A DNA stretch of 61,871 nt, filler included, from Hausera hauseri (GCA_046269625.1; 11 parts of 11 records of this genome joined end to end with filler, not necessarily neighbours in it), one strand, 5' to 3'. Shown: positions 1 to 51,543, numbered from the whole stretch's first letter. Notes: generated by a model from the letters alone, not told the origin. Numbers and translations are program-made.

Positions 1-3000
1 CAATAATTTTCGGATGAGAACTTGGTTTCGGCGTGAGGTGGAAATTCGTTGCATTGATACGGTTTTTCCTGAATGGTTATTGACGAGAATCTATAAATAT
101 TACCCAAGGTAGTATTTGCATAAAGTTTAATTGGGGTTGTCGCGTTATTAGCTAATCTGATCGGCACCCGACCCGAAGCAACTCTTGTTAATTCGTTACT
201 GAACACGATATTCGGATTTCATGTCTCCTTTGGCTCGACATATACTGGTCATCATCTTGACGAATTTGTGCATAAAACAACGTGTCCTTGTTGGAATATT
301 TTCATCTACCTGAATTGACATTTTTCCTAGTTTCCTGTCCTTTATATTTTATACTTCTTTTACTGGTCCGAGCTCTATTAATTTCCCAACATGGAAATCT
401 AATGCTGCATTTGGTAGTTATCTCAATAAATCACATCCTAATACTACATCGTCAGTTAGTTATTCCATTATGGAGAATTCGTGATTAAACAGTTGTCCCA
501 TCATATGCATTTCGGGGTTCCATTTATATTTACGTCTCAATGACTGCTCAAAAACTCTAAAGAAGCCTCAGTATGTTGCTAATGTGGATACAAGTGTTTA
601 CGCAGATTTTAATTGTCTTTGATAAATGACATCTCATATCGTGCATCGATTAAGGCATAGATTTCCTAGTCTTCAAGTCGAACCTTAACGAAAGATCTTC
701 ACTCTATTATTGTTCCGTAATGATTTGATGCAACTTTGGGTTGTTTTACCGTCGATACTTTATATCCGTTAATTCTAATCTCAGTGGAAGTGGCTGGTTG
801 GTTGGTTATTTGTTTTAGTTCCTCGATTGCATATACATTACTATTTACGCAATCAATAATTTACGTTCCGTGGTCCTTTATTATCTGTTGTTGTTCCTGC
901 TTGTGCAATAAATTATGGTCCATGATTCTTGAAAGTTAACATTTCCTGGTTTCGCAGATTTTCGCAAGACTTGGGTATTCGTGAATATAATATTCTATGA
1001 TTATCAACCGGTTGGCATTTGTAAGGAACAGACATTTTTCCTGCCTCATGCATTTTTCGTAATACACCACAGTGTTTTGTTCCTTCGTAAGGGACCCCGA
1101 TTTTTAATGTTTTTCTATAAATTTCCATTTGATATGTACTCTTTGATTGTTTGTCACAATTTTTATATACAGGTGCTGTTGGATGTAATATAAGCAACGG
1201 CAGTTTTATGACTGAATATGCTTTATGTCTATTTAATTTGGAGACGGCGACACTTCCCTTAGGCTCATCATCAACTGAATCATTCCTGCGCATATATCTG
1301 TTAATGATTTTCCGTCCATAATTGAATGTCAATTTTCTTCGTCTCTTACGGTTATGGTACCCAACATGCCGTTCTACGTCGCTTTTCCATTTAATTTTTT
1401 CGTAGGCCTTTACAAACTTACCAAAAGTAGTTATAATCTCAGTTAAAATTTTGCGTGAAAATCCTGTCAGTGCTTGAATTACGGCCTTGATTAGATATAC
1501 TAAGAAGTAAATTGACAAAAGTCCCTAGGCTACCTCTCCGAAGATTACGAATGTTCCCCAGATTTTGTATAAGATTTCTGTAGTTACCCCTTCATAGTCA
1601 TTGGTACCACGTAACGATTCCCATATTGCTTGATAACAGGAGTCTCCTATAATTGCGTGTAGGTCGATTCAGTTCATTCGTGCGTTGACGTGGAAATGCA
1701 AAAAAATTATCTAAATGCTTCGAATTCTCTAAGTCTATATATACCTTTCGTCGGCGTATCTTGAAACTTGCAGTCGGTTATCCATTTTACCAAAGTGGTC
1801 CGTCAGCTTTCCTGGTGCAGTGGTTAATCCTCCATTTGGTAGGTCTATACACTCAGTTTCACTACGTCTGAATATAGATTTTTCCAGACTCGCATTGCAT
1901 TCCTTTAGTGTCGTTGGTTGTGTAGAATTTGCAAGTGGAACTATGGTAAGTGGCATTGCCAGGCTTGATGTATTCTGATACAGCACCGGAAGTTCTTGCA
2001 TGTATCTTTTTTCTTCTACGTTAATCGAAATATCCTTTTTCTCGCATTCACAAGTCATTAAGACTTCACCCGTGACTCTACCGAAAAATCCTTCTTTCAT
2101 TGGAATTGTAGGTGATACTAACTCCGGATTTGCGTATATTAGTGCCAATTTGGTTTTCATAAATTTCATGTCCAATTTACCATTGATCGTTATCATCTTG
2201 TGATATAACTCGGTTATTCCTCGGTTACTGACCTTTATAATAGAAATAGGCGCCCCGATTTTGCAGGTAATTTTCGATTCGTACATCTTGTGTTTCTATC
2301 TTAAATAATTTAACATATCTCATTCTCTGCTGCAAAGAAAGCTTCATAATTGGCGGCATGCATCAGCACATCGCATTTCGTACGACATCCTATATTCGAT
2401 TACTGTTGGTAGGGGCCAGTTTATTTCTCATGGTAATTTCCTTGCAGCACTTTGGACTAGACTAATGGCCTTGTCGAAATCATTTTCTCTCGCCGGGTTT
2501 GTTTTAATCGCTTTCTTAATTCTTCTGTGATATTTTCTACTATAATCTTATCCATTAGAGCTTCATCTGTTAAAGTGCTTTTCGATAATTTAAATCGGGC
2601 ATTTTTCATTTTTTGATGCACTAAATATAATTTTCGCCTTTTCCTCCACTACGTCGCCTCAGAATAATTTACAATACATATCAAATATTTCATTAACTCG
2701 GTTAATCCTTCGTTTCCTAAATTAAGGGTGGGTATGGACTTTTGTCTCAACTCTTTAATTAAATCTCCGTTATAGTCGGTTTCTTCTCTCACTTTCCTGG
2801 GCCTTCCAACCCGGCGTTTCGGTTTTGTCTTCATCGTCACATGAATTTTGAGTGGGACTAAATTTATGTCGTATTGTTTGTTGTCCGCATCTCTTTGTAA
2901 GTTTTCAAAATGTGGACTCCCAATATTCGTCCTTCACACTGTTCAGTTCTGGCCTTACGTGTGGCCTCTTATTTAGTCTCATCAATTGCGACTACGACCA

Positions 3001-3130
3001 CTATACGATTTGTTTTCCGCGGAATAATTTCGACATCGATCATTAGTTCCAATTCGTCTAGTATTGTACCTTTAAAGTAGAGTCGGTAATTTACTTCGTT
3101 ATCCGCATAATTATTTATTAAACAGTTTGC
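1..3130 (-). mobile_element. Decayed copy of env-before-pol Ty3/gypsy element (family A): UBL/AT-hook region, internally deleted glycoprotein, tail, protease
   Basis: Minus-strand translations match the 21918-29203 copy: RLYFKGTILDE (~3050-3090), KPKRRVGRPRK (2649-2840 ORF), KTKLALIYANPELVS..GRVTGEVL (1735-2286), HPTAPVY (913-1518), EIYALIDARYEMSFI protease remnant (~620-670). Confidence 0.85.
1735..2400 (-). pseudogene. Chuvirus-like glycoprotein fragment (C-terminal ectodomain)
   Basis: Collinear and highly similar to the 24713-25357 ORF; contains stops and frameshifts. Confidence 0.8.
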
Positions 3131-5433: not shown

Positions 5434-6139
5434 TGATGGATCTCATTTCTAGCAAACAGCGCAGATGACAACGAGTTTCATCAAGCATTTACATTGCTCG
5501 CCTTACAGTTTTGTTTCCGATGAAAGAAATCTATCTCTTTGCTACGCATTTCTCTTTTTTTGCAATGCTAGTCCAGCGGGCAAAGTTGTTGTTTTGTCTC
5601 TTACAAAAATTGACAATTGTTTTAATGTTGGAAAATATATACACAAATTATCGAGTTGAATTTAAAAAATTTTGAATCTTTATTGTTGGCCATTGTGAAA
5701 TTTGGTTTTCATCGTTTTTTGGGAATTTTCGCTTCAGTTTCAATTTTCAGTTTGAGCATCACGTGGTTTTACGTATTGCATTGAGTTGTTGCGAACCGGT
5801 TTACATAATCATGGAAATAGCGGAGAACTTACTCAGACATTCATTTCAGCTTGATTAGGAATTTTCTATGCTCAATCACGAAAACAAAAGGAGAACTCTG
5901 CATCAGGCGAACTTGTTTGAAACGGAATCGTGTATATCTGATTTGTCTTCTCTTACTGAGTGCAGAGAATGAGGCTTTAACGACACTCGTAACATTCACG
6001 AATGTGATATTAACATGTATGGTAAGCACTTCACGGCTAGAACAGATCATAAATCGTTATATATGAAGACCGCCGACAAGCCAATAACACCACAATTCCA
6101 GACATAGCTAGGAAACATAGCAGATTTTAATTTTAATTT

Positions 6140-9375: not shown

Positions 9376-9596
9376 NNNNNNNNNNNNNNNNNNNNNNNNN
9401 NNNNNNNNNNNNNNNNNNNTTAATTAATTAANNNNNNNNNNNNNNNNNNNNNNNNNNNNNNNNNNNNNNNNNNNNGTAATGTGGGATATAGGATAAAGCC
9501 AAGTAAAACTAAGTAACTACTATATAGGATAAGACCAACTAATTTCATAACACATTTATTTCGTAACAATATAACTTTGACATAACGCTAAACACT

Positions 9597-10306
9597 TTAG
9601 TGTATGTGTGATTGTATGCATGTTTGCACATGCTAAGATATGTCTGTGTGCATATTCATGTGTTTGTCTGTGTGTGTAAGTAAAGATGTGAGTAACTTGA
9701 GAAATGAATATTTAAAATATATGTCTGTGTGTCTGTATGCTTGTTTGTGCTTGTAAAATGTAATTAACATGAGAAAAGGTATATCTCAGATATATGTTCG
9801 TATGCTTGTGCATGTACTTTTCTGTGCATGCAAAATGTAAGTAACCTGAGAAAAGCTATATGCTTATACTTGTAAAGTGCAACCAACCTAAGAAAAGCTG
9901 TATCTCGGGTATATGTCTGTGTTTTCCTGTGTGCGTGCATGCAAAATGCGAGGAACTTTGGAAAACGTATAGCTCAGATATATGTTGTGTCTTTGTGTAT
10001 TTGTATGTCTGTGCATGTAAGTAATCTAGGAAAGGAATGGCTCAAATATGTGTCACGTGTGCATGTTTGTGTGTGGGTAAAATGCGAGCAACTAGAGAAA
10101 TGACTTATTAAGAAATATGGTGTGTGTATGTGCCTATGTGAGTAAAATGCAATTAACCTGAGAAAAGGTATATGCCAGATATATGCCTGTATGCTTGTGC
10201 TTGTAAAGTGCAACTAATCTTAGAAAAGGTATATCTCAGGTATATGTCTGTGTATTGCATGTGCATATCTGTGCTTGTAAAGTGTAAGTAACCTGAGAAA
10301 AGGTAT
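9597..10306. repeat. Degenerate minisatellite, ~55-65 bp units (core GTAAGTAACCTGAGAAAAGGTATATCTCAG plus TG-rich spacer)
   Basis: Core recurs roughly a dozen times with variation. Confidence 0.85.
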
Positions 10307-18842: not shown

Positions 18843-19440
18843 AGTAGGTTGAAGTATCCTCTCTACCGCACTTTTCCGATTGTTCCGAAAACCACTTTTC
18901 CCCACGTGATTGGCTATAACGATTATTTCACTAAAATTTTCTCACTACCCTTACCTGGCCAAAAAGGAGGTCGAGCAATGGACTTTGGACCAAGTGCTAT
19001 CGATAGTGCGTGACGAGGTGAGCAAATCCTAGTATAGGTTATTATAAGCGCTAGAAGAGGAAGAAGCAAAAGAGTAAATGCGCCATGCATAACGCGAAAA
19101 ATGATGATAGCACTCAGAAAATGTGTACATGGAGTAAATCGATGTTGGTGATTCCAATGGACACGGTTGCAAAGTTATCCGACCGTGAGAACATGGGGAA
19201 ATCCGATTGGAAAATTTTATATTGGAAAAATATCCCCTTGCGCACCTATAATAACTTTTGCTCACCTCGTCACGCGCTATCGATATCACTTGGTCCAAAG
19301 TCCATTGCTCGACCTGTTTTTCGGCCAGGTGGGGGCTGTGAGACAATTTTAGTGAAATGATCGTTACTGCCAATAAGGTAGGGAAAAGTGGTTTTCGGAC
19401 CAATCAGAGAAGGGCGGTAGAGAGGACACTTCGACGTACT
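18843..19440. mobile_element. Non-autonomous mini-Polinton/MITE with ~190-bp TIRs and 6-bp TSD
   Basis: Left AGTAGGTTGAAGTATCCTCTCTACCGC; right end reverse-complements to AGTACGTCGAAGTGTCCTCTCTACCGC; flanks TACTTT/CACTTT; internal GAGAACATGGGGAAA shared with ~34805. Confidence 0.8.
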
Positions 19441-22400
19441 CACTTTAATTTCTCAGTATTACATTTGTTACTTAGAATACTGTTGGAAGAAAAACATCAA
19501 CATTCACATTTCTAGTACCAAAAATTACCGTAGCACATTTATTAAAAATATTAAATTAAAATTCGTATAGTTAGTGTTAAAAATTAAAATGCATAATTCT
19601 AAAAAATCATTTTGGGATTTTATAACAAATGGAGAAATGTACGAAATATAATGTTGATAAATAACATGAAAAGATTTAATTTGTTGTCAGAAAATGATTC
19701 ATTGAAATTTGTGCAAGCCCCAGAAATTATTGTCTGGATAGTAATAATTAATGCTTTGTGTTACTTACTTTGGCTGGAATCCGACTCAATTCTCATACAA
19801 AATACCATTAATTAATACCATTATATATGTAATCGTATCCTACTCCATTTGACTTCGATTATATCTCGGAAAGGCATTGACTACTGTCGATCTGATTGAT
19901 AGATTTCAATTTATAGAAAATTTGTAGAGAAAATATTACTTGTAAGATGAAAATGGTAAATTTAATGGGAAACTAAAAATTATGAAAATTTTAAATTTTT
20001 ATTCTGATTAATAAAACAAATGACAAATAAAATTCATCCGATAGTCAGAAACATCCACAAACCAACAAAATTCAGTCAGTCATATCCAGACGGACATCAT
20101 CCCAATTAGACATTTGAAAAGAAGTAAAATATGAAAGTATTATAAGTTTCATAACGAAATAAAATATATTTTACAAATTAAAATATTTTTTAGCAAAATG
20201 AACAATTTTTTCCAATCGTCTTCGTAAAAAATATCGAAAATTTTTCGAATGTAATTGATCGTCAAGACGTGGAAAATTTTCATATTCCATCCTATAATAC
20301 TCTCGCAGCTCTTTTAGGAATTTCATACTCAAACGAAGCCATGAATTACATTTAGAAAACTGGTCCAACGATTTGCATCTGTCGACACTTGAATATGACT
20401 TACTCAGCCGAGAAATGTAGTGCCACAGATAAGTCTCAATGCGCAAATTGAAATATTCGCATGTGAGTGAGCTGATAATAACGAAAAAGTCAGTATGGCA
20501 TAATGAATATATTTTTGAATTTAAAAAGTCCACAAGATTTGTGATTTCTGATGTATGTTTATTGGAAGTTGAATCATCACCGGTATGAACTGCAAAAAGT
20601 ATTTCTGACGTTCGAATTAATTTACATTCCTTGTCGGACCAGGACGTTTATGAAATGAACTTTAAACAGGCTATTTTGAAATCCCTTGATGTTGCATTTG
20701 ATAAAAGAATTTTTACCAAAGAATATCCTTTACCGTTGACATTAATTTCACATAACAATGCATTAGATAAGGTTGGTTGTAAATGAGGATTACAAATTAC
20801 AATCAATATGATTTTGAAATTGTCTTAATTCGTACAATATGGGCATAACATTAAACACACAAAAGTTAATCGGTTGGCCATTATTGAAATTTGAAGAGGA
20901 ATTTCATATACGAACATTTATTATAAACTAATATGTACATCGTCTTTGGGGCAGCAAATCAAATTTAAATAACATGATATTAAACGTTCTAAAAATCGAC
21001 CAAATCAATTAAAAACGAAGGAATCTTATTATGTAATCTAACTTTCTAACTCTTACCGTCTATTTTTTCTTCCCGTGGTTCAACTTGTTGTTCAATATGT
21101 CTATTCATCTATAGCGAATAAATTGGTTCGGTAGTACTAACAATGGGCCGTCTTTAAATTTTATTAAGATTTCTGTTGACTATTAAGGAATACCAATGCT
21201 TACCAATTAAAGAGTCAACAGTCTGATCCTTAGGCAAGTTTACTCGTAAGAATTCTCAGCAGCAATATTGTGATCAAAATTTTGCTTTTTGAGTTTTTTG
21301 AGTGTTTCTTCCTAAGATTAATTTATATACTAGTTTCGTACTCGGTAATTTATTTATGCCCGTCAATTTTATTTATTCTAATGGTTTGATTTCTATATCG
21401 TTGTAGTTTTATTTATTTGCATCTGTCAATTTTATTTATTCGTAAAACCATGTTTCTTCGCCATCGCTTTTGATTTTTGCAATCGACTGGGAATAATTTA
21501 CTTATTCTATGTCAAAATGATTAATGGAACTTCATGTTCTTCTTGGGTAGTCAAATTTTAAAATTTCTTTCAATTGACATTTTGATTAACGAGGTTTCAT
21601 TGACTTGGGTAGGTACAGGATTACATTTTGGATAACCGTTTTCTTTAATTTAGTATATCTAATGTATGGGAATAATTTTATATTTTCTGGGTAACTATTT
21701 TTCTTTAAAATCTTCTATTATTAGTGTGAGGATATAATGGAGAACGGAAATTCTAAATTTAAATTAGAAACATTTTTAAATTTTAAAAAAATTTAATTTA
21801 AAAGTGTAATATTAAAANNNNNNNNNNNNNNNNNNNNNNNNNNNNNNNNNNNNNNNNNNNNTTAATTAATTAANNNNNNNNNNNNNNNNNNNNNNNNNNN
21901 NNNNNNNNNNNNNNNNNCGGTGAAATTCTTACACCAGCCATAAAGATGGATGGACGGAAGGGATCATAGACATCATACTGAACTAATTAAAATAAAGAAT
22001 GACCACCACCTTAGCTTCGAAGAGATCAAGTTTGTAAAAAAATTATTAGACGCGATAGACCCGGATTCAAAGAGTATTAACGAGATGTACGAATTAGCAC
22101 TATTGATAGCAGAAATGGCAGAAATTAGTGACGAGAAGCTAAGGCAACTGTTACAGCAGATACAGCAAGTCGAAGAAACTTGCATTAAGACGAAACAGAG
22201 AGCGATAAGATTAGACGAACTAGCTAGAGAACTCGAAGTGTATAAAAACAAATACGCCCTTACAGAAGCCGAAAAAGCTGACGAGTCACAATTTATTCAA
22301 GATGGCAAAGAGATGTCACGTCTGAACTAACGAAATATCAAGAAAAAGGATTAATTTCACCCGAGGAATTATGTTCATTGTTAACACTGATCCACCAAAC

Positions 22401-23775
22401 GTCCGCTAATGGACGATGTTTTCGAACGACGAAAATGGTCCAAATGCAACAGAAACTACAATAACTCAGAGAAATTACATGGCCCGCAGGTGTAGATAGG
22501 CCAGCAGATACACTGTCAAGGACTTACCAACTGCCGGATAATGAAAATAAACCCGATTGGGAAGCCTATTTAGATGCAATGATAACAGAGAATCCGAAAA
22601 CCCCAATACATTTAGACGAAATTGAGATATATTTTCCAGACCAAAGGTTTGATGTAGGGATGATTTTGGACTCAGCAGAAACCGAGAAAGATTTAACTCA
22701 GCTGATCAAGGTAAATCTCACTGAAATTCAATTAAGACGGTTAGTCCCCACTCTAACTAAATTAGCTAGCGAAGGTACGATCTTCAATACAGTACGTAAG
22801 CTTTTACTCAAAGAATATGCCAAAATCCTAACAAAAAAGTATAAGAGGCGATTCTAGTAAAAATAACATCAGACTGGATGGACGAAAAGGAACAAGAGTA
22901 AAGGATGTATTACTGTGGATAAAGAATAACGGATACGCCCATGAGCTGAGCTACAGACTTTATTTCGGAGGAAGAATACTAGATGAGACAGAATTATTGA
23001 TAGAGGTTGGAATTATCCCAGTAGAATTAAACCGATTAGTGGTAACTACCGCTATCGAGGAAACAAAGGAAAAGGCTATAAGAAAGGTTAGAGCGGAACA
23101 ACCAGTAGGACGAATAATATGATTCCGAGATGCAGCAGTATATTTCGAGTACCTGCAGAGAGATGAAGATAATGAGCAATACGATAAAAATTTAGTACCG
23201 ATCGACGGCAGTGTACCTGCTATAACAAAACAAAAGCGTCCTGTCGGCAGACCACGGAAAATGCGGGAGGAGATCGACTATAATGGAGACTTAATCAGAG
23301 AATTGAGGCACATGTTCATACCGACCTTTAATGCGGATAATAAGGAGCTGAACGAACATAAGAAAAATTTGCTACGAATAGTAAACCACTCTAACCTCGG
23401 TGGTAATATATTAGACGAGAAGAAGGCCATAGCGAACGCCGCAAAGGCCATGAAGAACCTTCGGTGTAAATGAACCAAAAGTACTTTAAGCGCTGAAACG
23501 ATAATCGAGAAATTTATGGTAGAAAATACCATAGAGGAACTGAGAAAAGTGTTGCTATATCTGGCCATCAAAACCAATCCTAATCGAGAAAATGAATTTA
23601 ACAAGGCTAGTAACTTGGCAAGGAAGGCCGCCAGGAAGCTACCCCGAGAAGTGAACTGGTCTACGTTATTCGAAAAAGAGGAAGAACATCAAAGTGGATT
23701 CTTCTTCGATAACAATAGATTCGGAGATCTGCTACGAAATGTAACTGGAAATTGCAGAGGAAATGAATCGAATTG

Positions 23776-25600
23776 GCTAATTAATTTTTTGACCATGATG
23801 ATGTCAATAAGGCAAATAGACGCAGTCACGGTATATGATTGTGACAAATTTAGACTTGGCCAAAAATATTTGTTAATGGACTTGAAAATGTGCTAAGATG
23901 CGAGGCCTCACAGATTAGAAACAAAAGAGAAAAATTATATATTATATCAACAACGTGAACTAGTTACGCTGGATGGAGTAGAATGTATGTTACGGCGATC
24001 TCGCAGTATCTTCCATTGTGGACTGGTACATGGACACTCGTCAGTAATCAAGCCAACAACACCACTAATTCCGATAAATTTAGAACGTCAGCATTGTAAG
24101 CAAGCTAGAGAAACGGGGGGAACAAAATGGGACGGTATGGAACTGGAAATGCAACGAGGGAAAATAATCAGAGTGTACAAAGTAGCTGCAGGAATTTTGG
24201 ACATGCACACCGGACATTGTTATGGTGCGGAATAGGATACCGGAAAGGGATTAGAGTCAAACGTCGTGGTAGTGGATTTTTACGAAACCGAAATGCGTAT
24301 TCAGAAAGTGATGCTTCATAGTATTACTAAATTTTACACCGAGAACCACAAGTGCCATATTCAGGATGGCACATGTCCGTTTCGAAGTTCCGTAGTAATT
24401 TGGGAACCCCCAGCCAAGACCGATTGAAACTTTATCAGAATTAAAGAACTTAAATTCAACGAAACTACAGGAAAACGATACATAAGTAGCACAGAAACTA
24501 ACTCTAAAACAAGAGAAGATGTAGCTGAACAGTCTACACTTACTATATTAATTTCTGATACTCATGGATTAAAATTTGTAATTAGAGCTATGCTCACCAG
24601 ATGCGACCTCATAATGTATGACACCAACTATGAAGCATTTTTCGTAGCCGAGACAGAAATAAACACCAGAACGTTCAAACTCTAGACTCAGGACATCCGG
24701 ATTGAAGATTATTTGAAGAACAGAGACGACTATTTCTACTATAAAGGACAAGCTGAAATAGCCGAGTTGTATCACAAGATGATAACAAATGACTGTAAAT
24801 TAGATCTGGAAATCATGAGAACTAAGCTGGCCCTGATATACGCAAACCCCGAGTTGGCATCACTAGAAATTCCAATGAAGGAAAGTGTTTTTGGACGAGT
24901 AACCGGAGAGGACTTATTGACCTATGAATGTGAAAAGAAAGACGTACCGATTAATGTGGAGGAGAAGAAGTGTATACAAGAACTCCCAGTGATATATCAG
25001 GACCTACCAAGATTAGTCACACCAATTACCACAGTGTTGTTGGCGAACGCCACTCAACCGACAATTTTGAGAGACTGCAAAACTAGCTTAGGAGAACCAA
25101 TGTTCCGACGTAGCAAAACCGACTGGGTAAGTCTACCGAACGGCGGCATTATCGTACCACTTACCAAGCTGACAGGAACGAACCTAATAAAAAGACTAAC
25201 CGATGACAAATTTCAGGATACAGCCGCAAAAAGTACTTACCGACCAAAGGAAGTGGAGGAGTTTAGACAATTTCTCGCTTTTCGCCGCCAACGTACACAC
25301 GAGTTTAATAGAGCGATGAATACAATACTAGAGGATTCACGTTACCAAGCGAAATAGGAGTCATTACTTGGTGTTAGCTATTATAAGAAGGTAACTACAG
25401 AAATATTATACAAAATTTGGGGAAGATTTCTGATATTCGGACAAGCCGAGTCAGGATTTCTAGAAATATACTTCTTAATTCAACTAGTAAAAGCTATAAT
25501 TCAAGCAATGATAAATGGATATGAGATATTTACTTTGACAGGATTCTCGTGTAAAATTTTAACAGCTATTATTACACCTTTCGCTAAATTCTTAAAGGCT
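23776..25600 (+). pseudogene. env: Chuvirus-like (class III) envelope glycoprotein
   Basis: Signal-like WLINFLTMMMSIRQIDA then VTVYDC..KYLLMDLKMC; C..HCG..GHSS; CKQA; GRVTGE..C..C.QELPV; C-terminal WGRFLIFGQAESGFLEIYFLIQLVKAII..NGY..GFSCKIL, matching the recalled chuvirus G pattern. Confidence 0.8.
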
Positions 25601-26289
25601 TATGAAGAAAGTAAATAGAAAACAAATATGGAGCAACATGTGGGCTACCATAATCGGAAACGCAAAAGACACATTCGATTATAGACAGAAATTCATAGCC
25701 AGTAAGACACTTAGAAATAATTCCGATGATGACGAGCCTAAAGGAGGAGACATCATCACCAGGCCGAGTAGGAACAAAAACTACTCTGTTATGAAACTAC
25801 CATTACCAATATTACCACCAACGGCACCTATATACGAAGATTTCCAGAAGCAATTTATGAGCTCGTGCCAGACAGACATCTATCGGAAGCCGTTTAGTTT
25901 AGAAGATCCTTACGAAGGAACAAAACGCTATGGGATATTGCACAAGATCCACGAAACAGAGAAGACCTCGGCTCCACGCCATCAATCAGCAATCGACTAC
26001 CACGGCATATTTTACTCACCTAGAATACCTAAGCCAAACGAAACGCAATCGATATTTACTCGAAGCTGTGAGACTCAAAATCTCCGAAACCAAGATGTTT
26101 AGTCGCCGGTTAGGAACCCAAGAGTAGAAAACACAAATGGTACGAATAACGAATTATACCCAATCGGAGAGTTAAAACAGTTAGCCGAGCAGCCAGTTGG
26201 AACCACTGAAGTTATCATCAACGGCTGCAGTGTCTACAATACGACAGCCCAAATTAACACCACGTTATTACGGTACAGTAATCGATGGT

Positions 26290-29203
26290 GGGCCCTTCGC
26301 AAAAATTCAACTGAAAGATTGGGAAGTTTACGCGTTAATAGATACAGGATCTGAAATATCACTGATAAAATATGATTCGATCCCGCAGTTCCTACGGAAA
26401 CAATTGTATCCACCTCCCACGACAGACCCAGGAAGCATTAGAGCTTTCGGACAGTCGTCGAAAAGTAAATTCCGTTGGGAACCACAAATTCACATAATGG
26501 GACAATCTTTTCGTCATGAATTCTCAGTAATGGAGCAATTAACAGATGATGTAGTGTTAGGATGTGACTTACTGAGACAATTACCCAATATAGCAATCAA
26601 TTTCAATGCATGCAAGCTGATAGAACTTGGCCCAATATTAGGAGTCAAAACCACCAAAGATAGAAAATTCGGAGAAGTGTGGATTCCAGTGGATGAAACC
26701 ATACCACCCAGAACAGAAATTCTAATATATGCTCAGATACGTCAGGATGACGATCAGCCAATATATTTCGAACCAAAGAATCAATCGATCCAAACCTTGT
26801 GCTCAGCAATGTTTTGACAAGAGTATCAACAGGCCTCGTGCAAATCAAAATAGCAAATAACGCACCAATCCAGATCAAACTCTATGCCAATACCATATTG
26901 GGACATACGTATAGAGTACCATCAATTACTATCGGAGAGAAACTAACGTTGAGACTAAATTTTCGCCAGAATCCTATTGGCGATTTTACGAATTACATTG
27001 TCGTTATATTTCGATTATCGCGAAAGATGAAGAAAATATTGGTCGAGCCAAAACCTTAAGACTCACAATCCCACTTAAGAAAAAGCCTGGATCCAACGAC
27101 GAAATAGACTTAGAAGATCAAAAGATGCCGAAATGGTACCCCTCCACACTCGTTAAGATCAGAGATAACCAAAGAGGTTGAAAGAATGTTAAAGACCGAC
27201 ATCATAAGACCAAGCTATAGATCTTGGTATTCTCCTATACTTATGGTCAAGTAAAAAGGTACCAATAAACACCGATTCTGTACTGACTACAAAGCCTTGA
27301 ACACACTTATGATGAAAAACTCCTTCCCATTACCATCGGTAAAGGAAGCTTTGGATAGACTTTTGGGAGCTAAATGGTTCACCGCACTCGATTTACAATC
27401 CGGATATTGGCAAGTAGAGATAGAGGAGGAAGATCGGTACAAAACAGCATTTAAGACACACGACGGTATATACGAATTTAATGTAATGCCTTTTGGAATC
27501 ACTACCGGACCAGTCATCTTTACCCGTATGATGAACAAAATGCTAATGGGACTGGAGCACGCATTTGTCTATTTGGACGACGTTATGATTGCGTCAAAAA
27601 CGGAAGAAGATCATTTAAAAGACATTGAAGGTACACTTATGAGACCAGAACAGGCTGGACTGAAACTGAATCCCAAGAAGTGCAAATGGGCTCAAAATGC
27701 TGTGTCGTACCTTGGACATATAGTAGAAGGCGGATCGAAGCCGGATAAGTCATTATTAAGTAAGATATCGGATTGTATGGGACCTCAGAATCAAAAGGAA
27801 TTAAGACACTGGTTAGGTCTGCGTGGATATTATGCAACCTACGTACCGAATAACGCAAAGATAAACACACCTTTGTATCGGTTACTTAAAAAAGGGATCA
27901 AATGGAAATGGACCGATGTCGAACAAAAGGCTTTTTATGAAATGAAGAAAATTCTAACTAGTAAACCTGTTTTAAGATATCCTGACTTCAACTTACCGTT
28001 CATAATCAAAACAGACGCCAGTAAGGAAGGTATTGGATATGAATTGGCTCAGAAACGAGAGGACGAGGAGTTAGAACACCCAATCGCATATGGAGGGCGT
28101 TCTCTAAAGAAAGATAAGAAGAACTATTCAGTAACAGAGTTGGAAACGTAGGCAGTAAAAGAAGCACTGCGACATTTTAACGTATATGTCTATGGACAAA
28201 AGATTATAATCGTCACTGATCATAAAGCAGTTACGAATTTGAAAGATAGAGCAAATAATCCAACGTGTAGACTAAACAGATGAATAGAGGAAATTTCACG
28301 TTGTAATATTGAATTCCAATACAAGCCCGGAAATAAACATGTCGATGCCGACGCATTATCGAGACTTAAAACCAAAACAAGCGCAGTTACAGTAATGAGG
28401 AAAGCACACCTTGAAGATTTAGTACAAAGACAACGGATTCTCACACTAGATAAGGCATTAAGGATTGCTGTCGAACAGAAAAAAGACAAGGTTATACAAC
28501 AGATTATCGAGTACGTTGATACCAACGTAACACCAAAGGATCATCAGATACTAAAACACCTACAACGATATGGTCACAAATACTGCGTCGCTGGAGATTT
28601 GAACCACGAGAATGTGTTATACTACGAACGAAAAGGATGAAAATTAGTTGTCATACCAAAAGGATTGCGTTTAGAAGTATTAATGGCCAAACACGATTCG
28701 TATTTGGCCAGACACATGTCATGGAAAAAGACCCTAGTAAGAATCTTGAATAAATATTATTGGCCAAGTATTTACATTGATGTGAGAAATTTGGTGAATG
28801 CTTGCGAAGTATGCGCAAACAAACAAAGAAAAATGAAAAACTACATCGCCGAACTTAAGCCTATCGACGTGCCCGATAGACCAATGCAAGCAATGTCTAT
28901 GGATATTGTAGGACTATTGCCTACGACCCACAAAAATAACAAATACATTTTGACCTGTGTGGACCAATTGACTCATTTCGTGGAGCTTATAGCGTTACTA
29001 GACCAAAAGGCCGAGACCTTGGCAGAAGCTGTGGTCCGGAAAATCATTTGCAGATACGGGACACCCGAACAAATCTTGACAGACCAAGGAAGAAACTTCA
29101 CGAGCAAATTGTTCGACAAAATTACCAAAATTTTCGAGATTGAACGATTAACTACCACAGCTTACCATCCCCAATGTAATAGAATGGTCGAACGAATGAA
29201 CGC
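26290..29203 (+). pseudogene. pol: Ty3/gypsy pol: protease, spacer, RT, RNase H, integrase
   Basis: ALIDTGSEIS; FTALDLQSGYWQV; MPFG; VYLDDV; TDASKEGIG; H..H..YYWP..CEVC; MDIVG; ILTDQGRNF; TTAYHPQCN. Confidence 0.95.
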
Positions 29204-29303: not shown

Positions 29304-32284
29304 AAAATCGCTTCTACTGCGACAAGGCAATACACCAATCTGGAAAATCGTATTAAAATTGAAGTCGAAAAACGGTCGCAGATATATAGTCTAAGGAATA
29401 GGATGATGCATCCAGCTGACAATGAAACACAGAAAATAATTATAGCTTGTATCCTCGAATTCGATGAATATAAAGACAAGTTTGACTATGCCTGCCGGAT
29501 CATCGATGTTATTAGAGGTCCGGATGATGAGCTAGAAGACTCCCGTAAAATGTTAAATAATGGGATCTTAGCGAAGCCAGAAATCGCTAATCAATTAAAT
29601 GAGTGGTCCAAACTAATAAAGAGGTTGAGTAAATTAGTGGCAAATAGAACGGAAGAGTTTCTGGAGAGTGAACCTACAGTAAAGAAGCAGTTGGAAGAAG
29701 GCGCCCGAAATTTAGATACAATGAGAGAAGAAATCGATATTCGAACCCAATTCGAGTCACTGCGTCAGTTGGACTTTATTGAGAGGAAACAAGAAATGAT
29801 GACACTAGATGACATATATAAAATGATAGAAGAAACAAACTTTGCACAAAAACGAAATCGGATTCGTGACCTCTATCCAAGATTAAGAAAAGTCCGCTTA
29901 GAAGGAATTCAGAATTTGACCACTGGAGAGCCTATAGAAGAAATATCGGTCCGTGATCTTAAGACTGTAGACGTTTGTCCAAATTACCAGTCGACCCTTG
30001 AAGAGGTAGTGACATTCTTACATCAATCACAGGAAAGGATGGCTGGAACTGATCAAAGGCATCATACCGAACTAACTAAAATAAGGAATGACCAACATCT
30101 TAACTTCGAAGAGGCCAAGTTTGTTAAAAGATTTCTTGACGAAATAGACTTAGATTCAAAAATTATCAATGAGATGTATGACTTAATACTACTGATGGTG
30201 GAAATGGCAGAAGTCAGCGATGAGAAATTAAGACAGCTGTTGCCACAGATACGACAAGTTGAAGAAACTTGCATTAAAACCAAACAGAGCGATGAGATTG
30301 GACGAACTAGCCAAAGAGCTTGAATCGTATAAAGTTAAGTATGCTCTTACAGAAGCAGAGAAGGTTGACAAGTCGCAATTCGTGCAAAGATGGAAAAGAG
30401 ACATAGCTTCCCAGTTAACAAATTATCAGGAAAAAGGGTTTATATTTGCAGAAGAATTACGCCAGCTGCTAACCGTATTACTCCGAACTTCCGGAAATGG
30501 ACGTTGTTTCCGAACCACACAAATGGTTATAATGCAACAAAAACTACGAGAACTAAGAGAATTAGTAAAGGAAGCAAACTTAGCCCAGCCGTTAGGAACT
30601 CCGGAGGCCGACTTCGGATTCCTCGAAGATGAGAACGAATGGGAAGCGCATCTGAATGCAATAATCGCCGAAAGCCCGAAAAGTCCCGTACACTTGAACG
30701 AAACAGAGACGAGTCCATCAGATCAGAAATTCCATGTAGAAATGCTTCTAGACCCGGCACAAACTGAAAAGGATATATTTAGGTTAATCAATGTAGACCT
30801 TACTGAAAATCAATTAAGACGGTTGTTCCCCACTCTAACCAAATTGGCCAGCGAAGGTACCGTCTACAGTGCTATGCCAAAACTTTTAATCAAGGAATAT
30901 GCGGAATTTTTGAGGACCAGGCCCGAAGAGGCAATTAAAGTAAAAAAAACGGCTGACTGGATGGAGGAAAAAGAACAGGAGTTCACCACGCGCTCCCTTG
31001 TAAAGGATGTACTACTATGGATAAAGAACAATGGTTACACCCATGAGCTAAACTATAGACTCTATTTTAGAGGAAGAATACTAGACGAATCGGAGTTATT
31101 GATAGAAGTTGGAATTATTCCCGATGAGATAAACCGGTTAATGGTAACTACAGCTATCGACGAAACGAAGGAGGAGGCTATAAGGAAAGCTAAAGCAGAA
31201 CAACAGGTAGGACAAAGACTAGGAGTCCGAGATGTAGTAATATACTTCGAGTACCTGCAGACAGACGAGGATAATGAGCAATATGATAAAAACTTGGTAC
31301 CTTTAAACGGCAGCGTACCCGTTGCAACGAAACCAAAGCGTACTGTGGGTAGACCACGGAAGATACGAGAGGAAAACGACTACAATGGAGACCTAATTAA
31401 GGAATTGAGACAAATGTCCATACAGACCTTTAGTGCGGATAATGAGGAACTGAACGAATTGATGAAGGATTTGATACGAATAGTAAACCACTATAGTCTC
31501 AGCGGTGATATATTGATGAGAAAGAGAAAGCCATAGCGAACGCCGCAAAGGCTATGAAAGGTCTTCGGTGCAAATTATCCAGAAATACTTTAAGTGATGA
31601 AGTATTGATTGAGAAAATTATTATAGAAAATACTATAGTGAAATTGAGAAAAGTGTTACTCTATCTGCCCATTAAAACAAACCCAAATCGGGAGAACGAA
31701 TTCAGTAAGGCCACTAGTTTGGCAAGAAGGGCTGCCAGAAAGTTGCCTCGAGAGGTGAACTGGTCTAAACTATTCGAAAAAGAAGAAGAACCTCAGAATG
31801 GATTCTTCTTCGATAACAATAGATTCGAAGACTTGCTACGGAATGTAACTGGAAATCGTAGAGGAAATGAGTCGAACGGGTTAATTAATTTTTTGACCCT
31901 GATAATGCTAGTAAAGCAAATGGGAGCAGTTACAGTATATGATTGTGACAAATTTAGACTTGGTCAAAAATACTCATTAATGGACTTAGAAATGTGAAGA
32001 CGAGAGACCACACAAATTAGAAACAAAAGAGAAACATTACGTGCTATATCAACAACGCGAACTAATTACATTGGATGGGGTAGAATGTATGTTGAGACGA
32101 TCTTGCAACATCTTCCACTGTGGATTGGTACACGGACATTCATCGATAATTAAGCCTACAACGCCCCCGATTCCGATAAATTTAGAACATCAGCATTGTA
32201 AGCAAGCGAGAGAGATGGGAAGAGTAAAATGGGACGGCATGGAACTGAAAATGCAGCAAGAAAAAATACTCAGAGTCTACAAAA
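29304..32284 (+). mobile_element. Third family-A copy: long N-terminal polyprotein region (helical, UBL, AT-hook) and the first ~130 aa of glycoprotein
   Basis: ORFs 29403-30323, 30259-31536, 31554-31997 and 32041- are joined by frameshifts and align with 21918-24180. Confidence 0.85.
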
Positions 32285-32954
32285 ATATCAGCTGCAATAC
32301 GACTTGTACAACACGTATCCCGGAGAACGAAGCATCTATCTGAAAGGATATTGTCCAAAAATCGGAATATGGAAGTTTCCGCCTCCAACCACGACGACGA
32401 GACCGTCCACTGCTCCGAGCACAACTTTCGCTACTACAATTGCCACCTGGGATGGACTAACCGAAGAAAAACGAGCTAGTATACCTATCAGGATTTTAAC
32501 AAAAAGTGATAGACTTCTATTCTACACTGAAGAAACGTTAAATTATGACGTTAAAATTGAATGTCGTACCCTGTATACCAATCAGATCGTGATCTTAAGG
32601 AAGAATAATCCGGAAGCAGAATGTTAATCATCACGACTGCAGCACGAATGTATAATCAGAATCGCTGCAAAGGGTAAGAACCCTAAAACTTATGCAGTGC
32701 GCACTCTGAATAACAAAATGGAAGTAATGCGGTATAAAGGTCTTAGTACCCAGAGCGTGTTCACCACGAATAGTTCCATCAAAGAAAACAATTTACCGAT
32801 AATAGCTATATTTAGTTTGTCAATTTTCGTTCTTGTAATATTAATAGCGACGATTTTTCTAGTTTCCAAAATTTGTAATAAGCGCGATAAAAATCAAAAG
32901 GGAGATAAACGGGTAAAAGGGTATCGAGACGGACCTTATGATAGCATAACCTAA
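32284..32954 (+). pseudogene. Type I membrane protein remnant (Thr/Pro-rich stalk, TM, basic tail), unknown function
   Basis: PPPTTTTRPSTAPSTT; one in-frame stop at 32625-32627; TM LPIIAIFSLSIFVLVILIATIFLV followed by SKICNKRDK. Confidence 0.55.
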
Positions 32955-33059
32955 CAACTACAGATCGAGTTATGCTATCATCAGACACAGAAAATGTTTT
33001 GTTTTAAAACGATGATCTGTCTTAGGATTAACCTTTATTTTTATTTCAGCAGAGTAAGT

Positions 33060-33328
33060 ATGTCCGAGAAGGCGAAGCACTCATCAGTTAGTCACAGTTT
33101 TGATATCGAAAATTTTTTGCAGCAACACGACACTGACCTAAAACCGTTATCCAAAAACCTATATCGACAAATTGGAGAAAACTTGAAAAGCCAGAACTAC
33201 CTAGAGTTCGACCCAGAAAGTAAAATACCAAAGGGACTAAAATTGGGTTTAGGACAGAATAGATTGATCCGATTATATGCTATGCGAAGTCCAAGGGATG
33301 CACGGGCATACCTACTAAGAGATCCGAT
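33060..33328 (+). CDS. Accessory ORF X (N-terminal part, cut by gap), homologous to the 43355-44983 ORF
   Basis: Motif PE..I..GLK-x5-NRL-x-R-x5-SP shared with the 43742 ORF; splice-acceptor-like TTTTATTTCAG just upstream of the ATG. Confidence 0.55.
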
Positions 33329-37894: not shown

Positions 37895-38048
37895 GTGTAC
37901 ACGGACGTCCAATCTCACTACCGAGATTTAAGGGGAATTTTTTTACTAGAAAATCCATAAGAAAAAATATCAAGAGCTTCCACCAGGATTTGAACCCTAC
38001 ACCTCAAGCACTAAAGGTTGATGTTATCTCGAGACTACCAAGCCCCCC
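37895..38048 (-). mobile_element. tRNA-derived SINE, 5' part (same family as 56940-57320)
   Basis: Aligns with 57166-57320; B-box GGTTCAAATCC. Confidence 0.8.
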
Positions 38049-44983: not shown

Positions 44984-46801
44984 AAAAGCAAAAAGTGAAC
45001 AAATGATTCAAACAAGGGAACTTTCAGTACTAATCTAAGGACAAACACATCAAATAATCAATGTTCGGTTTATACAAAAAGCAACAGTGACTATAAATCA
45101 ACGCAATCAAATCCAACCTAACTGCAGGTTTGGATGAATAATCGGAATAATATACAGACATTCCGTGCATAATACATTGCACCTAGTAATTGTTGGTGCC
45201 CATCTTGAGACCATCAACAGTCTCGATCATAAACCGGTATTGGTAAATCAACCAATACAGATGCAATTAGACCAAGTACCTATCCGTAAACCCAGGAGTG
45301 AGAAAGCAATTAATCTTCGAGGAACTACCAAGGAAAAATTGAAAATGCTCCTGTATCAATGAGGCCATCAGTTCACTTTAGAAAATTTATTCCAAATGAA
45401 ACAGAAAACAGACGATATGACGGTAAAAACGTTGACATCATGCGTTTCAAAAGTTGATCATTTTCTTTTTGTTTCATAAGGTAACTGAGGATGCCAATGT
45501 GCTTAGTGAGATGAATTTCCTTAATCTCGATACAAAAATATAAAGCTTCCTAACGTAACCAAGCTACCTGAAATGCTGGATTTCGATATGTAGAGATCGT
45601 TAGAAATCTATCGCGTCATCAATTGTCTATTAGATTCGATCTGTGCCTTAATTTCATTGTCATCAACAGTCACTGGTATTTCTGAATTTTGCATATCTTT
45701 CACATCAAAATCTCCAGACCGCAATTTCGCAACCAATTATGATACTGTCAAAATTTTAAAGAATTATCTCCATATACATCAAATAATTTTTGTGAGCTTG
45801 CATAACCGTTAGATTTGAAGGAACAAAGTTTGAGACGCGAATAAGTAACAATCTGTTCTTGATTGAAATATTCGATATGCACAATAACTTCATTATAAAA
45901 AATCTCGCATTACTCTAAATTTTATATTGTGATATGAATTTAATGAACATCACTGGTACCTGCTATATTCAATTTGTAAGGTATTACCCTCACAAAATAT
46001 GACATATGGGCATTTAGACTATTCAACTTATAAATTATAATCGCTTCTTTCCCAAGCTCACCACTTCATTAAACCGCATCTTTTAAAGCCGTCAGTGAAA
46101 TTACTTAATGTTCCTAACATATATTTATTCATGCATNNNNNNNNNNNNNNNNNNNNNNNNNNNNNNNNNNNNNNNNNNNNTTAATTAATTAANNNNNNNN
46201 NNNNNNNNNNNNNNNNNNNNNNNNNNNNNNNNNNNNTTCAGACGGAAGCCAAGAGAAGAGGTAGGCCGAGAGGAACGAAAATAAGCGACATACGCAATAG
46301 GAAAGATAGAAATGAAGAACTAGTAAGACGTTTATTACTAACAGGAACAAATGACTCCCCTGAAGCACTGGACATAGATCCTTTACTAAGAACATCATTT
46401 GCTTTATTCGACACGCAAGTTATAATCCCAGATGAAGTATTCACTACGTTAGGTAGTAGTATGCTGCGAATAAGTAGACAATTCTACGAGAATCTACATG
46501 AAGAAAGGATAAAGGAGATACACGACTTGGATATTCTGAAAAAGATGTTGGCTACAGGAATTACACAAGAAAAAGCTCAAACGGCTATATCTTATCTGCT
46601 ATATAAGATAATAGAAATTAAACATCAGACTCAAAATCTAGAGGAGATTGACCGAAATATAAAGACAGCCGTGATGATTTTAAAAGATACTCTGGGAAAT
46701 TGGGCTCAATGTAGAAGTGGCTGACTGAACAGCTTGACGACTAATGTGATGATAGACCAGTTGGGACACAATCAACTACTTCTAGATCAGGTATAACAGG
46801 C

Positions 46802-48660
46802 ATGTTGATAATGGCGATTATAAAAATTCTATTGATAACATCATTGCTAATGCCGAAATCCGTAGGTATAGTGGCGTACGATTGTTCTAAGCCTACTGAA
46901 GGACAAAAGTATTCTCTAGTTGACTTAGAAAAATTCCCAGAAGCCGATCCAGAACAGTTAACAACTACCAGTGGCCTTACATATTAGGTGCACCAATAGT
47001 GAATTCATAAAAACAAAGATTAGGGAATGTTACGTGAAAAGATCGTTCTTTTTGTTTAATTGTGCCTTCTATTGGGGAAACTCGGCCATAATTGAGCCTA
47101 CAACACCTTTTGAGCCAATAATAATATCACGAGCAGAATGTTAGGATGCTTTTAAGATTGGCATTATAACTATACAAAATTCACACATTCCAGCAGTAAG
47201 GAACAGAATAAAATATACAAGGATTTTTAGGGTAGGAAGGATAGATAAAACAATGGAAGGCATTTGTAAAGGAGTAGATTATGATGTCGGAGGCACCATC
47301 GCACCTAGAACAGTAGCCATAGAAAATTATCAGGTACAACTGAAAGAATATGAAGGATTATTTGATTCGCAAACGAAGTTAATGACGACGATGAGTGACT
47401 ATGAATACAATAATGGTGAATGTGATAAAGGAGAGTCTAAAATTACATGGGAGACTCTAGCAAGTAAATGCCAATTAACACTGTTAAAGAACGGGAAGTT
47501 TAACAAGACAGTAGGAAAGACAGCGGAGAAAGAGACGGCGACATATAAAGAAGGAACAAAGGAAGTTAAGATGACAGAGGTAGCTACAATTGTATACTCA
47601 GAAAATCCAGAAGAAATGATGACATTTAAAGTTGTGGGAGTAGTAAATAAGTGTGGCGAAGAAATATCCAAAACCAATTATAAAGGTATTTTATTATCGA
47701 GAAAAGAAGTACCCGGAGCGAAAACTAAAATAGATAAGAAAGATATTAAGTGGACCACATACTTTGATTATAAGATCGATTTTCTAATTAATTAGGTAAG
47801 GAAAGAAATTAGGGGTTGATATCGGGAGATAATAATGAACGATTGTAAGCTGAACTACGAAATAATGCGTAATAAAATGGCACTGGTAATAACAAATCCA
47901 GATATGGTATCACCAGTACTACCCTTCGTCGACGGAGTTATTGGAAGAGTGCGGGGTGAGGTGCTGATAACAATAGAATGTATGAAAGTGGAAGTATCAG
48001 TTAGACCCACGGAAGAATGTACAACGGAACTACCTGTCGTTTATCACTCAGAGGCCCGATATGTTACGCCAGTGACTAGGATATTGTTAGATATTAATGT
48101 AAAGCCTACTTCACTATACAATTGTACTTTTAATATGTCACCAATGTTAAGATCGACAACGATAAATGGATAAGAATGCCGAAAAGAAAACCGGTTCCAA
48201 ACCGGAGACATTAAGTTTGATTAACTTACAAAGGAATCAGAAGTTCGAACCATTAACAGGAATATCGCAGGGAGGAATTTATATCCAACAAAATTTAGAA
48301 GACTATCGACGGATATTGTTGTTCCCACAACAAAGACAACGAATAATAACCGAATTAACACGGAGAGTAATGTGGGATGACGAAGGATCACCACAATGGG
48401 AAAACCTTATGGGTAAAGACAATTTAAAGAAGGTAACGAGAAACGTAATGGAAAAGATGTGGGGAAAGTTCATATATTTTGGTCAAGCCGCTTCCGGCTT
48501 TCTAGCTATTTATTTTATAATTAGCGCCCTTCAAACAGTATTTACGGCACAAGGTAAAGCATGTGGGATACATGCCGCAGTAGGATGCTCATGGAAGATT
48601 TTAATAGCGGTAGTACCGGCAGTAGCGAGTTGCTTCTTAGCGAACCATGACGCACGATGG
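46802..48660 (+). pseudogene. env: Chuvirus-like envelope glycoprotein (family B)
   Basis: MLIMAIIKILLITSLLMPKSVG|IVAYDCSKPTEGQKYSLVDL; GRVRGEVL..C..CTTELPV; GGIY; MWGKFIYFGQAASGFLAIYFII..GCSWKIL. Confidence 0.85.
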
Positions 48661-48999
48661 AAAAGGAAGATATTACAAAAGAAAGACATAAAGGAATCTC
48701 CGTATAGTATACCTGATAACGATGATGCTGAATATACTCAGATGAAAGCAAAGAAACGAGTACCCATTATCAAACAACTAGTACTTAAGACGCGGAAGCC
48801 TGAGTATAGACAGAAGCTAATAACCAACCTGCCTCGTTTGGATCCTGTAGATGAACATCATGGACAAATGTATAATGAACACCGTTAATAAATCCTTCAG
48901 CTCCACGATATGTAGTACATGCAGGATTATATCCTACTCAACAAGTTCAGCAGATGAAACAAAGTCTTGATGAACGTGAATTCACATAACTATTAACGA

Positions 49000-51543
49000 T
49001 AAAAACGAACGGCAACCCCTATATGACCTGAAATAGAAATAGAAGTGAATAGATACCACATGATGGCTCTGTTAGATACTGGATCAACAACGACAATAAT
49101 GGGAAGAAGCCAATTGCCAAAAGAATTAAAAAGGAAGTTGCGAAGGCCAACTACTACACTAGTGAACGTAGGAGCATTCGGTACCGAAGAAAAAATCAAA
49201 ATGGTCCTGGATGCCAAAATTAAGATTGGTTAACAAACTTTGAACCATACCATAAGAATAGCCGATAATCTGACTAACGAAATTTTAATGGAATGTGATA
49301 TATTAAATCAATTGGAAAACGCGTATATAGATGTGAGAACATGTCAACTTAAGACGTTCGGTGAAGATCGTAACGAAGGAATTGTCTCACTAACTAAAGA
49401 CATTACGATCCCACCACGATATGAGATAATAGTCCCGGGAAAAATAGAAAGTCGAACGTTACCGGAGATTATTTATTTTGAACCACTTCCACAAGTTATG
49501 GAAAAATATGAAGTCCTAATCGCCCCTCACGTAGATAAAGTTAGAGATAGAAAAGTTCATTTACGCATTTTTAATACGACAAACAAAGAAAAACGATTAC
49601 GAAAAGATACTAGATTGGGAAAAGTAACAAGAACTGAAGAAACAACCAAAGAAGAAACCTGCTCAGTAATATCAGACGTAGATAAAATAGAAAAGATGAT
49701 GACAAAAAAGTTGAAAAAGAAACCAGACGAAGACAAAGAAAATAAAACCTCGAATATTGACTGGAACGAAAGGTTGCAAAAATGTGAAATTCTAAGTAAG
49801 GAAGAAAAGAAAATGTTAGTTAAGTTATTAGAAAAGAATGCCAGTCGATTTGCACAAACCGACTATGACCTCGGTACCATGAAAGTAATACAGCATGTCA
49901 TTAAGTTGAAGGACGGACAGGACAAGCCAATTAAGAAGAGACCGTATCGACTGGCATATGATAAGAAACAGGAAGCTCGTAAAATAATAAAGGAAATGAG
50001 AGAAAATAAGATAATTCGACCAAGTTGCTCTCCATGGACAGCGCCGGTAGTAATGGTTAAAAAGAAAGATGGAAGTATGAGATTCTGCATAGACTATAGA
50101 GCTTTGAATGAAATAACGGAGACGGACACATATCCATTACCAAGAATTGACGAGATACTAGATAAATTACATGGATCAACCATATTCACAACTATCGATC
50201 TACAAAAGGGTTATTGGCAAGTGGAGGTAAAAGAAGAAGATAAACCCAAGACAGCCTTCTCAATCGGAGAAGGGCTATGGGAGTTTAATAGGATGCCCTT
50301 TGGATTAAAGAATGGATCACCAACGTTTCAGAGAGAAACCGAACTCCTACTGTTAAATGCTCCACACGCCATGGTTTATATAGACGACGTAATAATAGCT
50401 TCGCCAAATTTTTAGCAGCATCTAAAGAATTTGCAGGATCTCTTTGATAGATGCAAGATAATGGGTTTAAAGATAAACCCAAAGAAATGTTCATTTGCAC
50501 AAACAGAGGTAAATTTCCTCGGACATAAAGTAGACAGGCATGGTGTAAAATCTCAGGATAAACTCTTAGGAAAAATAAGAGATTTTCCTAAGCCAGGTAC
50601 CGTTAGAAAACTACGTCAGTTTCTAGGTTTAGCAAACTATTATCGAAGATTCATAAAGGATTTTAGTAAAATTGCGAAACCTCTGTATGAGTTATTACGT
50701 GAAGATTTAGATAAAGTCATCTGGACCAACAAATGCCAAAAAGCTTTCGAATATTTAAAAGATAGATTATTAACGGCTCCTATATTAATCTACCTAGACA
50801 TGGCCGAACCATTTATTTTGGCAACAGACGCAAGTGATTACGGAATAGGAGCAGTATTATCACAGAAGGGTGAAGATGGAAAAGAATATCCTGTGGCCTA
50901 TGATTCACAAATAGTTAATAAGCATCAAAAGAAATACGCGGTAATAGAAAAAGAGTTATTAGCGGTGATATTTGCTCTAGAAGTATTCTCACCATATATT
51001 AGTGAAAATAAACAGCTTATGATTTATACAGATCATAGACCACTCCAATGGCTAAAACAACATGAAAACCCAAATAGCAGGCTACTACGATGGGCTCTCA
51101 AGTTACAACCATATACATTGAATTTTCAGTATAAGTCTGGCACGCGAAATGCTAATGCCGATTACCTATCGAGACTACCTGACAAAACAGAAACGAAGGC
51201 AGTAGTTGCAGCCGTATGGAGTATGGATGGATCAGTTGAAAAAATTAAGATGAATCAAGATGAAGATATCAAAATAAGAGCCATTAGGAAATATATAAAA
51301 GATAAAATTATATCAGTGGACAGAAAATTAACCCGTCACCTGGCTCGATTCAGTGAAGCGTACGAGGAAAAGGAAGGATTTCTATATTTCATTAGTCAAA
51401 ACGGACCAGCATTAGTAATTTCTAAGAAAAATAGAACAGTTTTGCTAACCCAATACCACGATGGATTGCTTGGGGGACACCAATCAGCCAATAAGACACT
51501 AAAATTAAAACGGAAATATTTCTGGCCAACGATGACGAAAGAC
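49000..51543 (+). pseudogene. pol: Ty3/gypsy pol (family B)
   Basis: LDTGS; SPWTAPVVMVKKKDGSMRFCIDYRALN; MPFGLKN; YIDD; TDAS; TDHRPL; YHDGLLGGHQ..KYFWPTM. Confidence 0.95.

Follow-up and report, generated by a model that had tools for sequence, protein, structure and literature searches.

The contig at 21918-29203 of the window analysed here (the whole stretch of 61,871 nucleotides, 1-61871, from Hausera hauseri) is very probably a decayed copy, hereafter S5, of a Burro-like Ty3/gypsy retroelement. Intact relatives of this element carry Gag, a fusogen of the herpesvirus gB type and Pol in one frame, and the resulting chain is predicted to thread the membrane of the endoplasmic reticulum (ER), with Pol held in the cytosol on the tail of the glycoprotein (G). 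The 11 contigs that make up the window are unrelated and separated by spacers of the form N44-TTAATTAATTAA-N44, and neighbouring copies in it are not physically adjacent. S5 fills a complete contig, flanked by these artificial spacers, and begins within open reading frame 1 (ORF1) and stops within the integrase.

Domain order of S5 and predicted fold of its glycoprotein

A single frame of S5 (22832-25615; all features of this copy lie on the plus strand) runs through an upstream region, a hydrophobic signal segment starting at 23777, a VYDC motif at 23831 and a transmembrane region, with 7 in-frame stops inside. The internal signal peptide (23777..23827) was predicted from hydropathy, and relatives keep a hydrophobic segment ahead of [AVG][YF]DC. 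It is followed by G with its C-terminal membrane region (23828..25590) and by a tail of ~230 codons (25590..26290), which bears a PTAP motif at 25818, shifts frame at ~25670 and again at ~26230, and is interrupted by stops at 25616 and 26100. Then come an aspartic protease (PR, 26290..26590; RVP, E 2.7e-7), reverse transcriptase and RNase H (RT and RH, 27147..28370; RVT_1, E 3e-35 and RT_RNaseH_2, E 7e-25) and an integrase cut by the contig end (IN, H2C2 and core, 28641..29203; E 1e-16 and 6e-16). The Pfam order after G is thus RVP, RVT_1, RT_RNaseH, Integrase_H2C2 and rve, which, together with the S5 frame, confirms the arrangement of signal peptide, VYDC glycoprotein, transmembrane segment, ~230-residue tail and PR-RT-RH-IN proposed in the initial annotation. 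The order of the pol domains, the gypsy-type RNase H and the H2C2 integrase found with Pfam place S5 in the Metaviridae (Ty3/gypsy). PTAP/PSAP late-domain-like motifs occur in the tail of each of the three window copies covering this region (25818, ~1180 on the minus strand and ~48900); among the relatives scanned, only P0008 has PT/SAP in its tail.

Residues 317-922 of the S5 frame match PF24664 in Pfam with an E value of 7.5e-49. The AlphaFold2 model of G, computed from a 106-row alignment, has a mean predicted local distance difference test score (pLDDT) of 88 and displays the long central helix typical of class III fusogens. Herpesvirus gB appeared in all 36 matches listed by Foldseek for this model (best E 1e-13), and the G profile searched against the PDB likewise returned herpes gB in 36 of 36 hits (best E 0.002). 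The initial annotation had proposed to test G as a class III fusogen; the predicted structure indicates that it is one, of the gB-like type. S5 therefore has a gB-type ectodomain between signal peptide and transmembrane region, 5' of a gypsy pol.

Copies in the window and decay of S5

Three more copies are found in the window. S1 (62..3115, minus strand, on the contig 1-3130) has about 65% nucleotide identity to S5 and is without the signal peptide and the N-terminal third of G. S6 (29304..32283, plus strand; 76% nucleotide identity to S5) has the ORF1 spacer, a ubiquitin-like domain, the signal peptide and the start of G, followed by an internal deletion. S9 (46237..51543, plus strand) represents a distant sister family, with a Bcl-2-like domain (46407-46721), signal peptide, G, transmembrane segment, tail, PR, RT, RH and the start of IN; its G is about 31% identical to that of S5, and the domain order is the same in both. 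Its linker of ~100 residues between PR and RT has a dUTPase-like look, and no Pfam match at E<=1 was obtained for 49381-49680. Since the 20,643 contigs of run X1, which may come from the source organism itself, are of mixed identity and cover all 30 bins of S5 (their summed depth being no copy number), the S5 family comprises many diverged copies.

Stops interrupt the frame of S5 at 15 places, and the frame itself changes 7 times (~22300, ~22830, ~25670, ~26230, ~26800, ~26940 and ~27140). It is a dead copy and its breaks are decay. Nine of the 15 stops could be aligned to S1 or S6, where eight positions are sense, one falls at a gap and none is shared. Within X1, the stop at 25616 is absent from 10,124 of 10,228 units of depth and the stop at 26100 from 242 of 259. 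S1 passes the ~25670 shift site within one stop-free frame (913-1524, transmembrane segment and proximal tail) and has a separate shift of its own within the tail, a site which S5 in turn passes. The distal tail and the protease of S1 lie in one frame, as stated in the initial annotation, whose view of the ~26230 shift as decay is upheld by the differing places of the shifts and by the unshared stops. In S9, two shifts have a net effect of zero, and transmembrane segment, protease and RT share one frame.

These data bear on an alternative with the same gene order, in which Pol of the S5 subfamily would be made apart from Env. Either ribosomes would shift frame or read through a stop in the tail in a programmed manner, or splicing would remove env and yield a Gag-Pol message. 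All three window copies spanning the tail do shift frame somewhere within it, DNA cannot reveal splicing, and synthesis of Gag, Env and Pol at 1:1:1 is unusual among retroelements, which counts for this alternative. However, the shift sites differ from copy to copy, cancel out in S9, and the tail stops are private to their copies. Moreover, 19 relatives run unbroken from G into the tail, 18 of which could be followed to the protease motif. We therefore regard separate synthesis of Pol as unlikely.

Gag, Env and Pol in one frame in intact relatives

When 1.84 billion representatives were scanned with HMMER, 532 hits were obtained, the top ones being long proteins, and 19 of them were chosen by rank or length. 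In 10 of these 19 hand-picked hits, a single chain holds G together with protease and/or RT. A second search, aimed at long homologues, retained 11 from 2,823 candidates: PF24664 was joined to protease and/or RT in all 11, with RT plus IN in 7 and zinc knuckles in 3. The most complete picture at the protein level comes from P0156 (3,700 amino acids), in which a capsid-like Gag, two knuckles and G continue to the integrase in one chain; Gag is also in frame with G in P0016, P0008, P0010 and P0017. CCHC knuckles lie near the N-terminus of P0155 and P0156 (two each) and P0006 (three), a region missing from the window contigs. At the DNA level, L001 is a single stop-free frame of 3,426 codons that encodes G (470-1109), three protease domains, RT, RH and IN; no long repeat was found in L001, from which both element ends are missing. 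The initial annotation had proposed an Env-Pol polyprotein. Its core, env before pol in one polyprotein, stands (L001 and the 11 long homologues), but several relatives start with Gag (P0156, P0016, P0008 and P0010), so the product is Gag-Env-Pol and not Env-Pol.

In a quick G tree with midpoint root, the two window G proteins nest within a group of 18 G borne on polyproteins, which is separated from 20 stand-alone G with an SH-aLRT branch support of 99. The RT tree, built from window copies and unnamed relatives, recovers groups similar to those of the G tree; its outgroup is a decayed gypsy element without env at 38886-41365 (minus strand) of the window.

The chuvirus-like glycoprotein gene might instead be a nested viral fossil within an ordinary gypsy element, the outcome that the initial annotation had named as fatal to its proposal. 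PF24664 is indeed a mononegavirus/chuvirus-type family, and such fossils are described as frequent near gypsy fragments (PMC10084718). Against this, two window families whose G are only about 31% identical have a common order, G branches among polyprotein-borne G in an order like that of RT, and G is in frame in intact relatives. Because of the continuous frame of L001 and of the G and RT trees, a nested insertion was excluded, and we leave it a negligible probability.

Several relatives show additional peculiarities. Aspartic protease domains are repeated in P0152, P0006, P0004 and P0002; P0152 (4,844 amino acids) has up to 7 protease motifs after G, plus ankyrin and C2H2 domains, and ankyrin is found in P0155 as well. 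P0003 (HBK71150.1) is a full polyprotein of such an element, yet its record assigns it to a Flavobacteriaceae metagenome-assembled genome; animal DNA was probably binned there with bacterial sequence.

The spacer between Gag and G

The part of ORF1 present on the S5 contig (21918..22830) is a helical or coiled spacer with weak helical Pfam hits only; it extends upstream in S6 (29304-30290), and Gag itself is not on the contig. A ubiquitin-like domain follows at 22862..23047, with a modest match (E 0.005) to a profile built from the repeats of 12 relatives. The same profile matches S6 at 30919-31149 with E 1.4e-4, and Pfam ubiquitin matches in relatives are weak (E 0.018-0.031). An AT-hook-like motif, GRPRK, lies at 23234..23266 (Pfam AT_hook, E 0.14) and recurs in several relatives.

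The last spacer segment of S5, 23285..23686, is helical and lies where S9 and several relatives have a Bcl-2-like domain, with no detectable homology to it: 45 of 497 shuffles scored equally high and hhalign gave P values of 0.014-0.18. In S9, 46407-46721 matches the Bcl-2-like profile of relatives with E 6e-15, and three relatives have this domain according to Pfam (E 0.001-0.2). In a profile search of the PDB, nearly all natural hits were Bcl-xL/Bcl-2, covering the BH2 region only and ranking behind three designed helical proteins. The model of the S9 domain is all-helical (pLDDT 74), and Foldseek listed the Bcl-2 family in 46 of 46 matches, with a best E of only 0.066 and a TM-score of ~0.5.

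A second membrane protein and other 3' frames

A second membrane protein, whose usual place is after the integrase, is found in the internally deleted copy S6 (32280..32936, plus strand). It consists of a Thr/Pro-rich stretch, a unit resembling fibronectin type III (FN3) and a transmembrane segment (hydropathy 3.06), and 32487-32720 matches a profile of the post-integrase units of relatives with E 6.7e-4. For the L001 homologue, the fibronectin type III lead (Atlas) is weak. In P0003, P0004, P0015, P0152, P0156, P0157, P0160 and L001, the integrase is followed by another signal peptide with one more domain behind it, and then in most of them by a clear transmembrane segment; P0158 shows no such unit. 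The extra hydrophobic segments of L001 and P0152 are signal/anchor pairs, a pairing that fits a chain threading the membrane. No description of a post-integrase FN3-like membrane protein was found in the literature on Burro and gB-type errantiviruses, within the portions consulted.

L001 carries the signal peptide-FN3-like-transmembrane cassette twice, at 4751-5330 between protease domains and at 9044-10282 after the integrase. Donor-like sites lie beyond its stop. Past the second membrane protein of S6, at 33030-33328, closely spaced acceptor- and donor-like signals occur, as does a further frame that is open to the contig end; judging from such signals, the 3' ORFs may be spliced. A long frame with one stop at 43145-44980 (plus strand) resembles, in its C-terminal part, a DEDDh/RNase_T exonuclease ORF located behind the L001 polyprotein (E 6e-10; PF00929 in the L001 ORF, E 1.4e-5), and may be an accessory gene belonging to elements of this type.

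Proposed topology and assembly

In the topology that we propose, Gag and the spacer would remain cytosolic, and the internal signal peptide would direct G into the ER, where it would face the lumen. Signal peptidase would separate Gag and the spacer, with its ubiquitin-like, AT-hook and Bcl-2-like parts, from G. The membrane region of G would make one net crossing, leaving PR-RT-RH-IN as a cytosolic extension of the G tail that would be freed by the element's own protease, and the second signal peptide after the integrase would insert the FN3-like unit as a type I membrane protein. The output of Gag, Env and Pol would be 1:1:1 unless altered by splicing, and Pol would reach particles via the membrane-bound precursor. 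That Pol is carried on Env is a fair prediction rather than an observation, and spliced messages might circumvent it.

Several points weigh against our interpretation of S5 as a decayed copy of such an element. The TM-scores of the G model against gB are about 0.37, so the domain arrangement of G differs from that of gB. Two hydrophobic stretches at the C-terminus of G make the number of membrane crossings ambiguous; we read the second one as probably non-spanning because it is short and bears Lys, Trp, Pro and often Cys. Neither Gag nor a long terminal repeat nor a primer-binding site was found on the S5 contig, whose ends fall inside ORF1 and IN, and no intact copy of the S5 subfamily was seen. 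The relatives are gene-caller products, with L001 alone verified as DNA. The indel at ~26228 is visible in only 3 X1 contigs (35.5 of 115.9 in depth); at ~25670 the X1 reads list no indel and contigs end loosely, the shift there resting on one window copy. The RT tree has long branches for the window copy and a single outgroup, and the likeness to Burro is one of layout and domain content.

Taken further, the predicted topology could belong to enveloped Metaviridae built on a flavivirus- or alphavirus-like plan, a proposal that we put forward tentatively and with more doubt than belief. A single membrane-threaded polyprotein would supply a gB-type fusogen and, behind the integrase, an FN3-type attachment protein, Pol would be delivered on the fusogen tail and not on Gag, and the Bcl-2-like domain would keep the producing cell alive. 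If this were true, the absence of the usual Gag/Gag-Pol ratio, the tethering of Pol to the envelope and the second surface protein would show that enveloped reverse-transcribing particles can be assembled in more than one way. A variant that differs only in the last step, and that is possible without being probable, would have the envelope act only within the host cell or between neighbours, by cell fusion or vesicle transfer, the element being no true infectious virus. The consulted literature on these elements reports no infectious particle. Budding, on the other hand, would fit the preservation of an intact fusogen across deep divergence, the PT/SAP motifs of the three window tails and a second surface protein, although among scanned relatives the motif is confined to the tail of P0008. 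The intact relatives L001, P0156, P0003 and P0160 offer wider material for work on assembly.

Other features of the window

The remaining contigs hold a DNA polymerase B2 fragment at 10153-10860 (minus strand; PF03175, E 5e-10), Polinton-like by family, a broken multi-PDZ frame at 4142-5450 (PDZ, E 6e-11), a separate gypsy integrase at 6229-6960 and, at ~8560-9300, what we take from its motifs to be a Tc1-like transposase remnant. Two stretches, 37896-38048 and 57167-57320 (79% identity), hold a short interspersed repeat of tRNA-like appearance, and a 197-nucleotide inverted repeat lies at 18843-19440.

Comparison with known elements

S5 represents a divergent family of a published kind, neither a new lineage nor a nested viral insertion. 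A continuous gag-env-pro-pol ORF is reportedly present in nematode endogenous retroviruses.

The Anakin elements (PMC7642597), which carry a chuvirus glycoprotein, share their glycoprotein family with S5, as described in PMC10084718 and PMC12440569. Their pol is of the BEL/Pao type, whereas that of S5 has a gypsy-type RNase H and an H2C2 integrase, and no BEL-type Pfam match was found in S5.

Closer counterparts are the GAG-ENV-POL 'ancient errantiviruses' with an HSV/gB-type env from Platyhelminthes, Bryozoa and Nematoda (Chary & Hayashi, eLife 2026, PMC13524379), which, as presented in the main text and supplement, have a Ty3/gypsy pol and a gB-type env between gag and pol, as found here. 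The words 'polyprotein', 'fused' and 'frameshift' are absent from the main text of that paper, which does not discuss a single-ORF topology. The same paper cites nematode endogenous retroviruses (Sacco et al. 2022) for env before pol in a metavirus. By eye, and not by computation, the N-terminal half of S5 G resembles six Schmidtea 'C1a' rows of PMC13524379 far more than the nematode rows; the nematode env rows of its supplement, from nematode hosts, look unlike S5 G.

The nearest likeness is to Burro/GYPSM1, giant (>30 kb) gypsy-like elements of planarians with one ORF that encodes Gag with 2-3 CCHC knuckles, Ubi/SUMO-like and BCL2-like domains and PR-RT-RH-IN, with a dUTPase-like domain between PR and RT (Arkhipova & Yushenova 2019, PMC6431247). 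In the parts of that account consulted, env lies in frame between gag and pol and has hits to mononegavirus fusion proteins, ankyrin occurs in some elements, and accessory ORFs, thousands of copies and, in some species, decayed copies are described. The elements studied here agree in the position of env within one ORF (P0156 and P0016; L001 DNA for env-pol, S5 itself being decayed), in an env related to mononegavirus-type fusion glycoproteins (PF24664 and the predicted gB fold) and, more modestly, in a ubiquitin/SUMO-like domain upstream of env in S5 and S6. They differ in that the MATH and BIR domains of Burro were not seen in them and Bcl-2 homology was not detected in S5; conversely, a post-integrase membrane protein and repeated proteases, both found in relatives here, are not mentioned in the consulted text of PMC6431247. 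Within these limits, the S5 element has the testable core features of Burro and appears to work like it. The undescribed lineage suggested in the initial annotation thus gives way to a layout and a lineage type already published, as far as these two accounts (PMC6431247 and PMC13524379) go: the in-frame position of env ahead of pol was published in 2019, and S5, being dead, adds a divergent family to the Burro-like elements and not a new kind.

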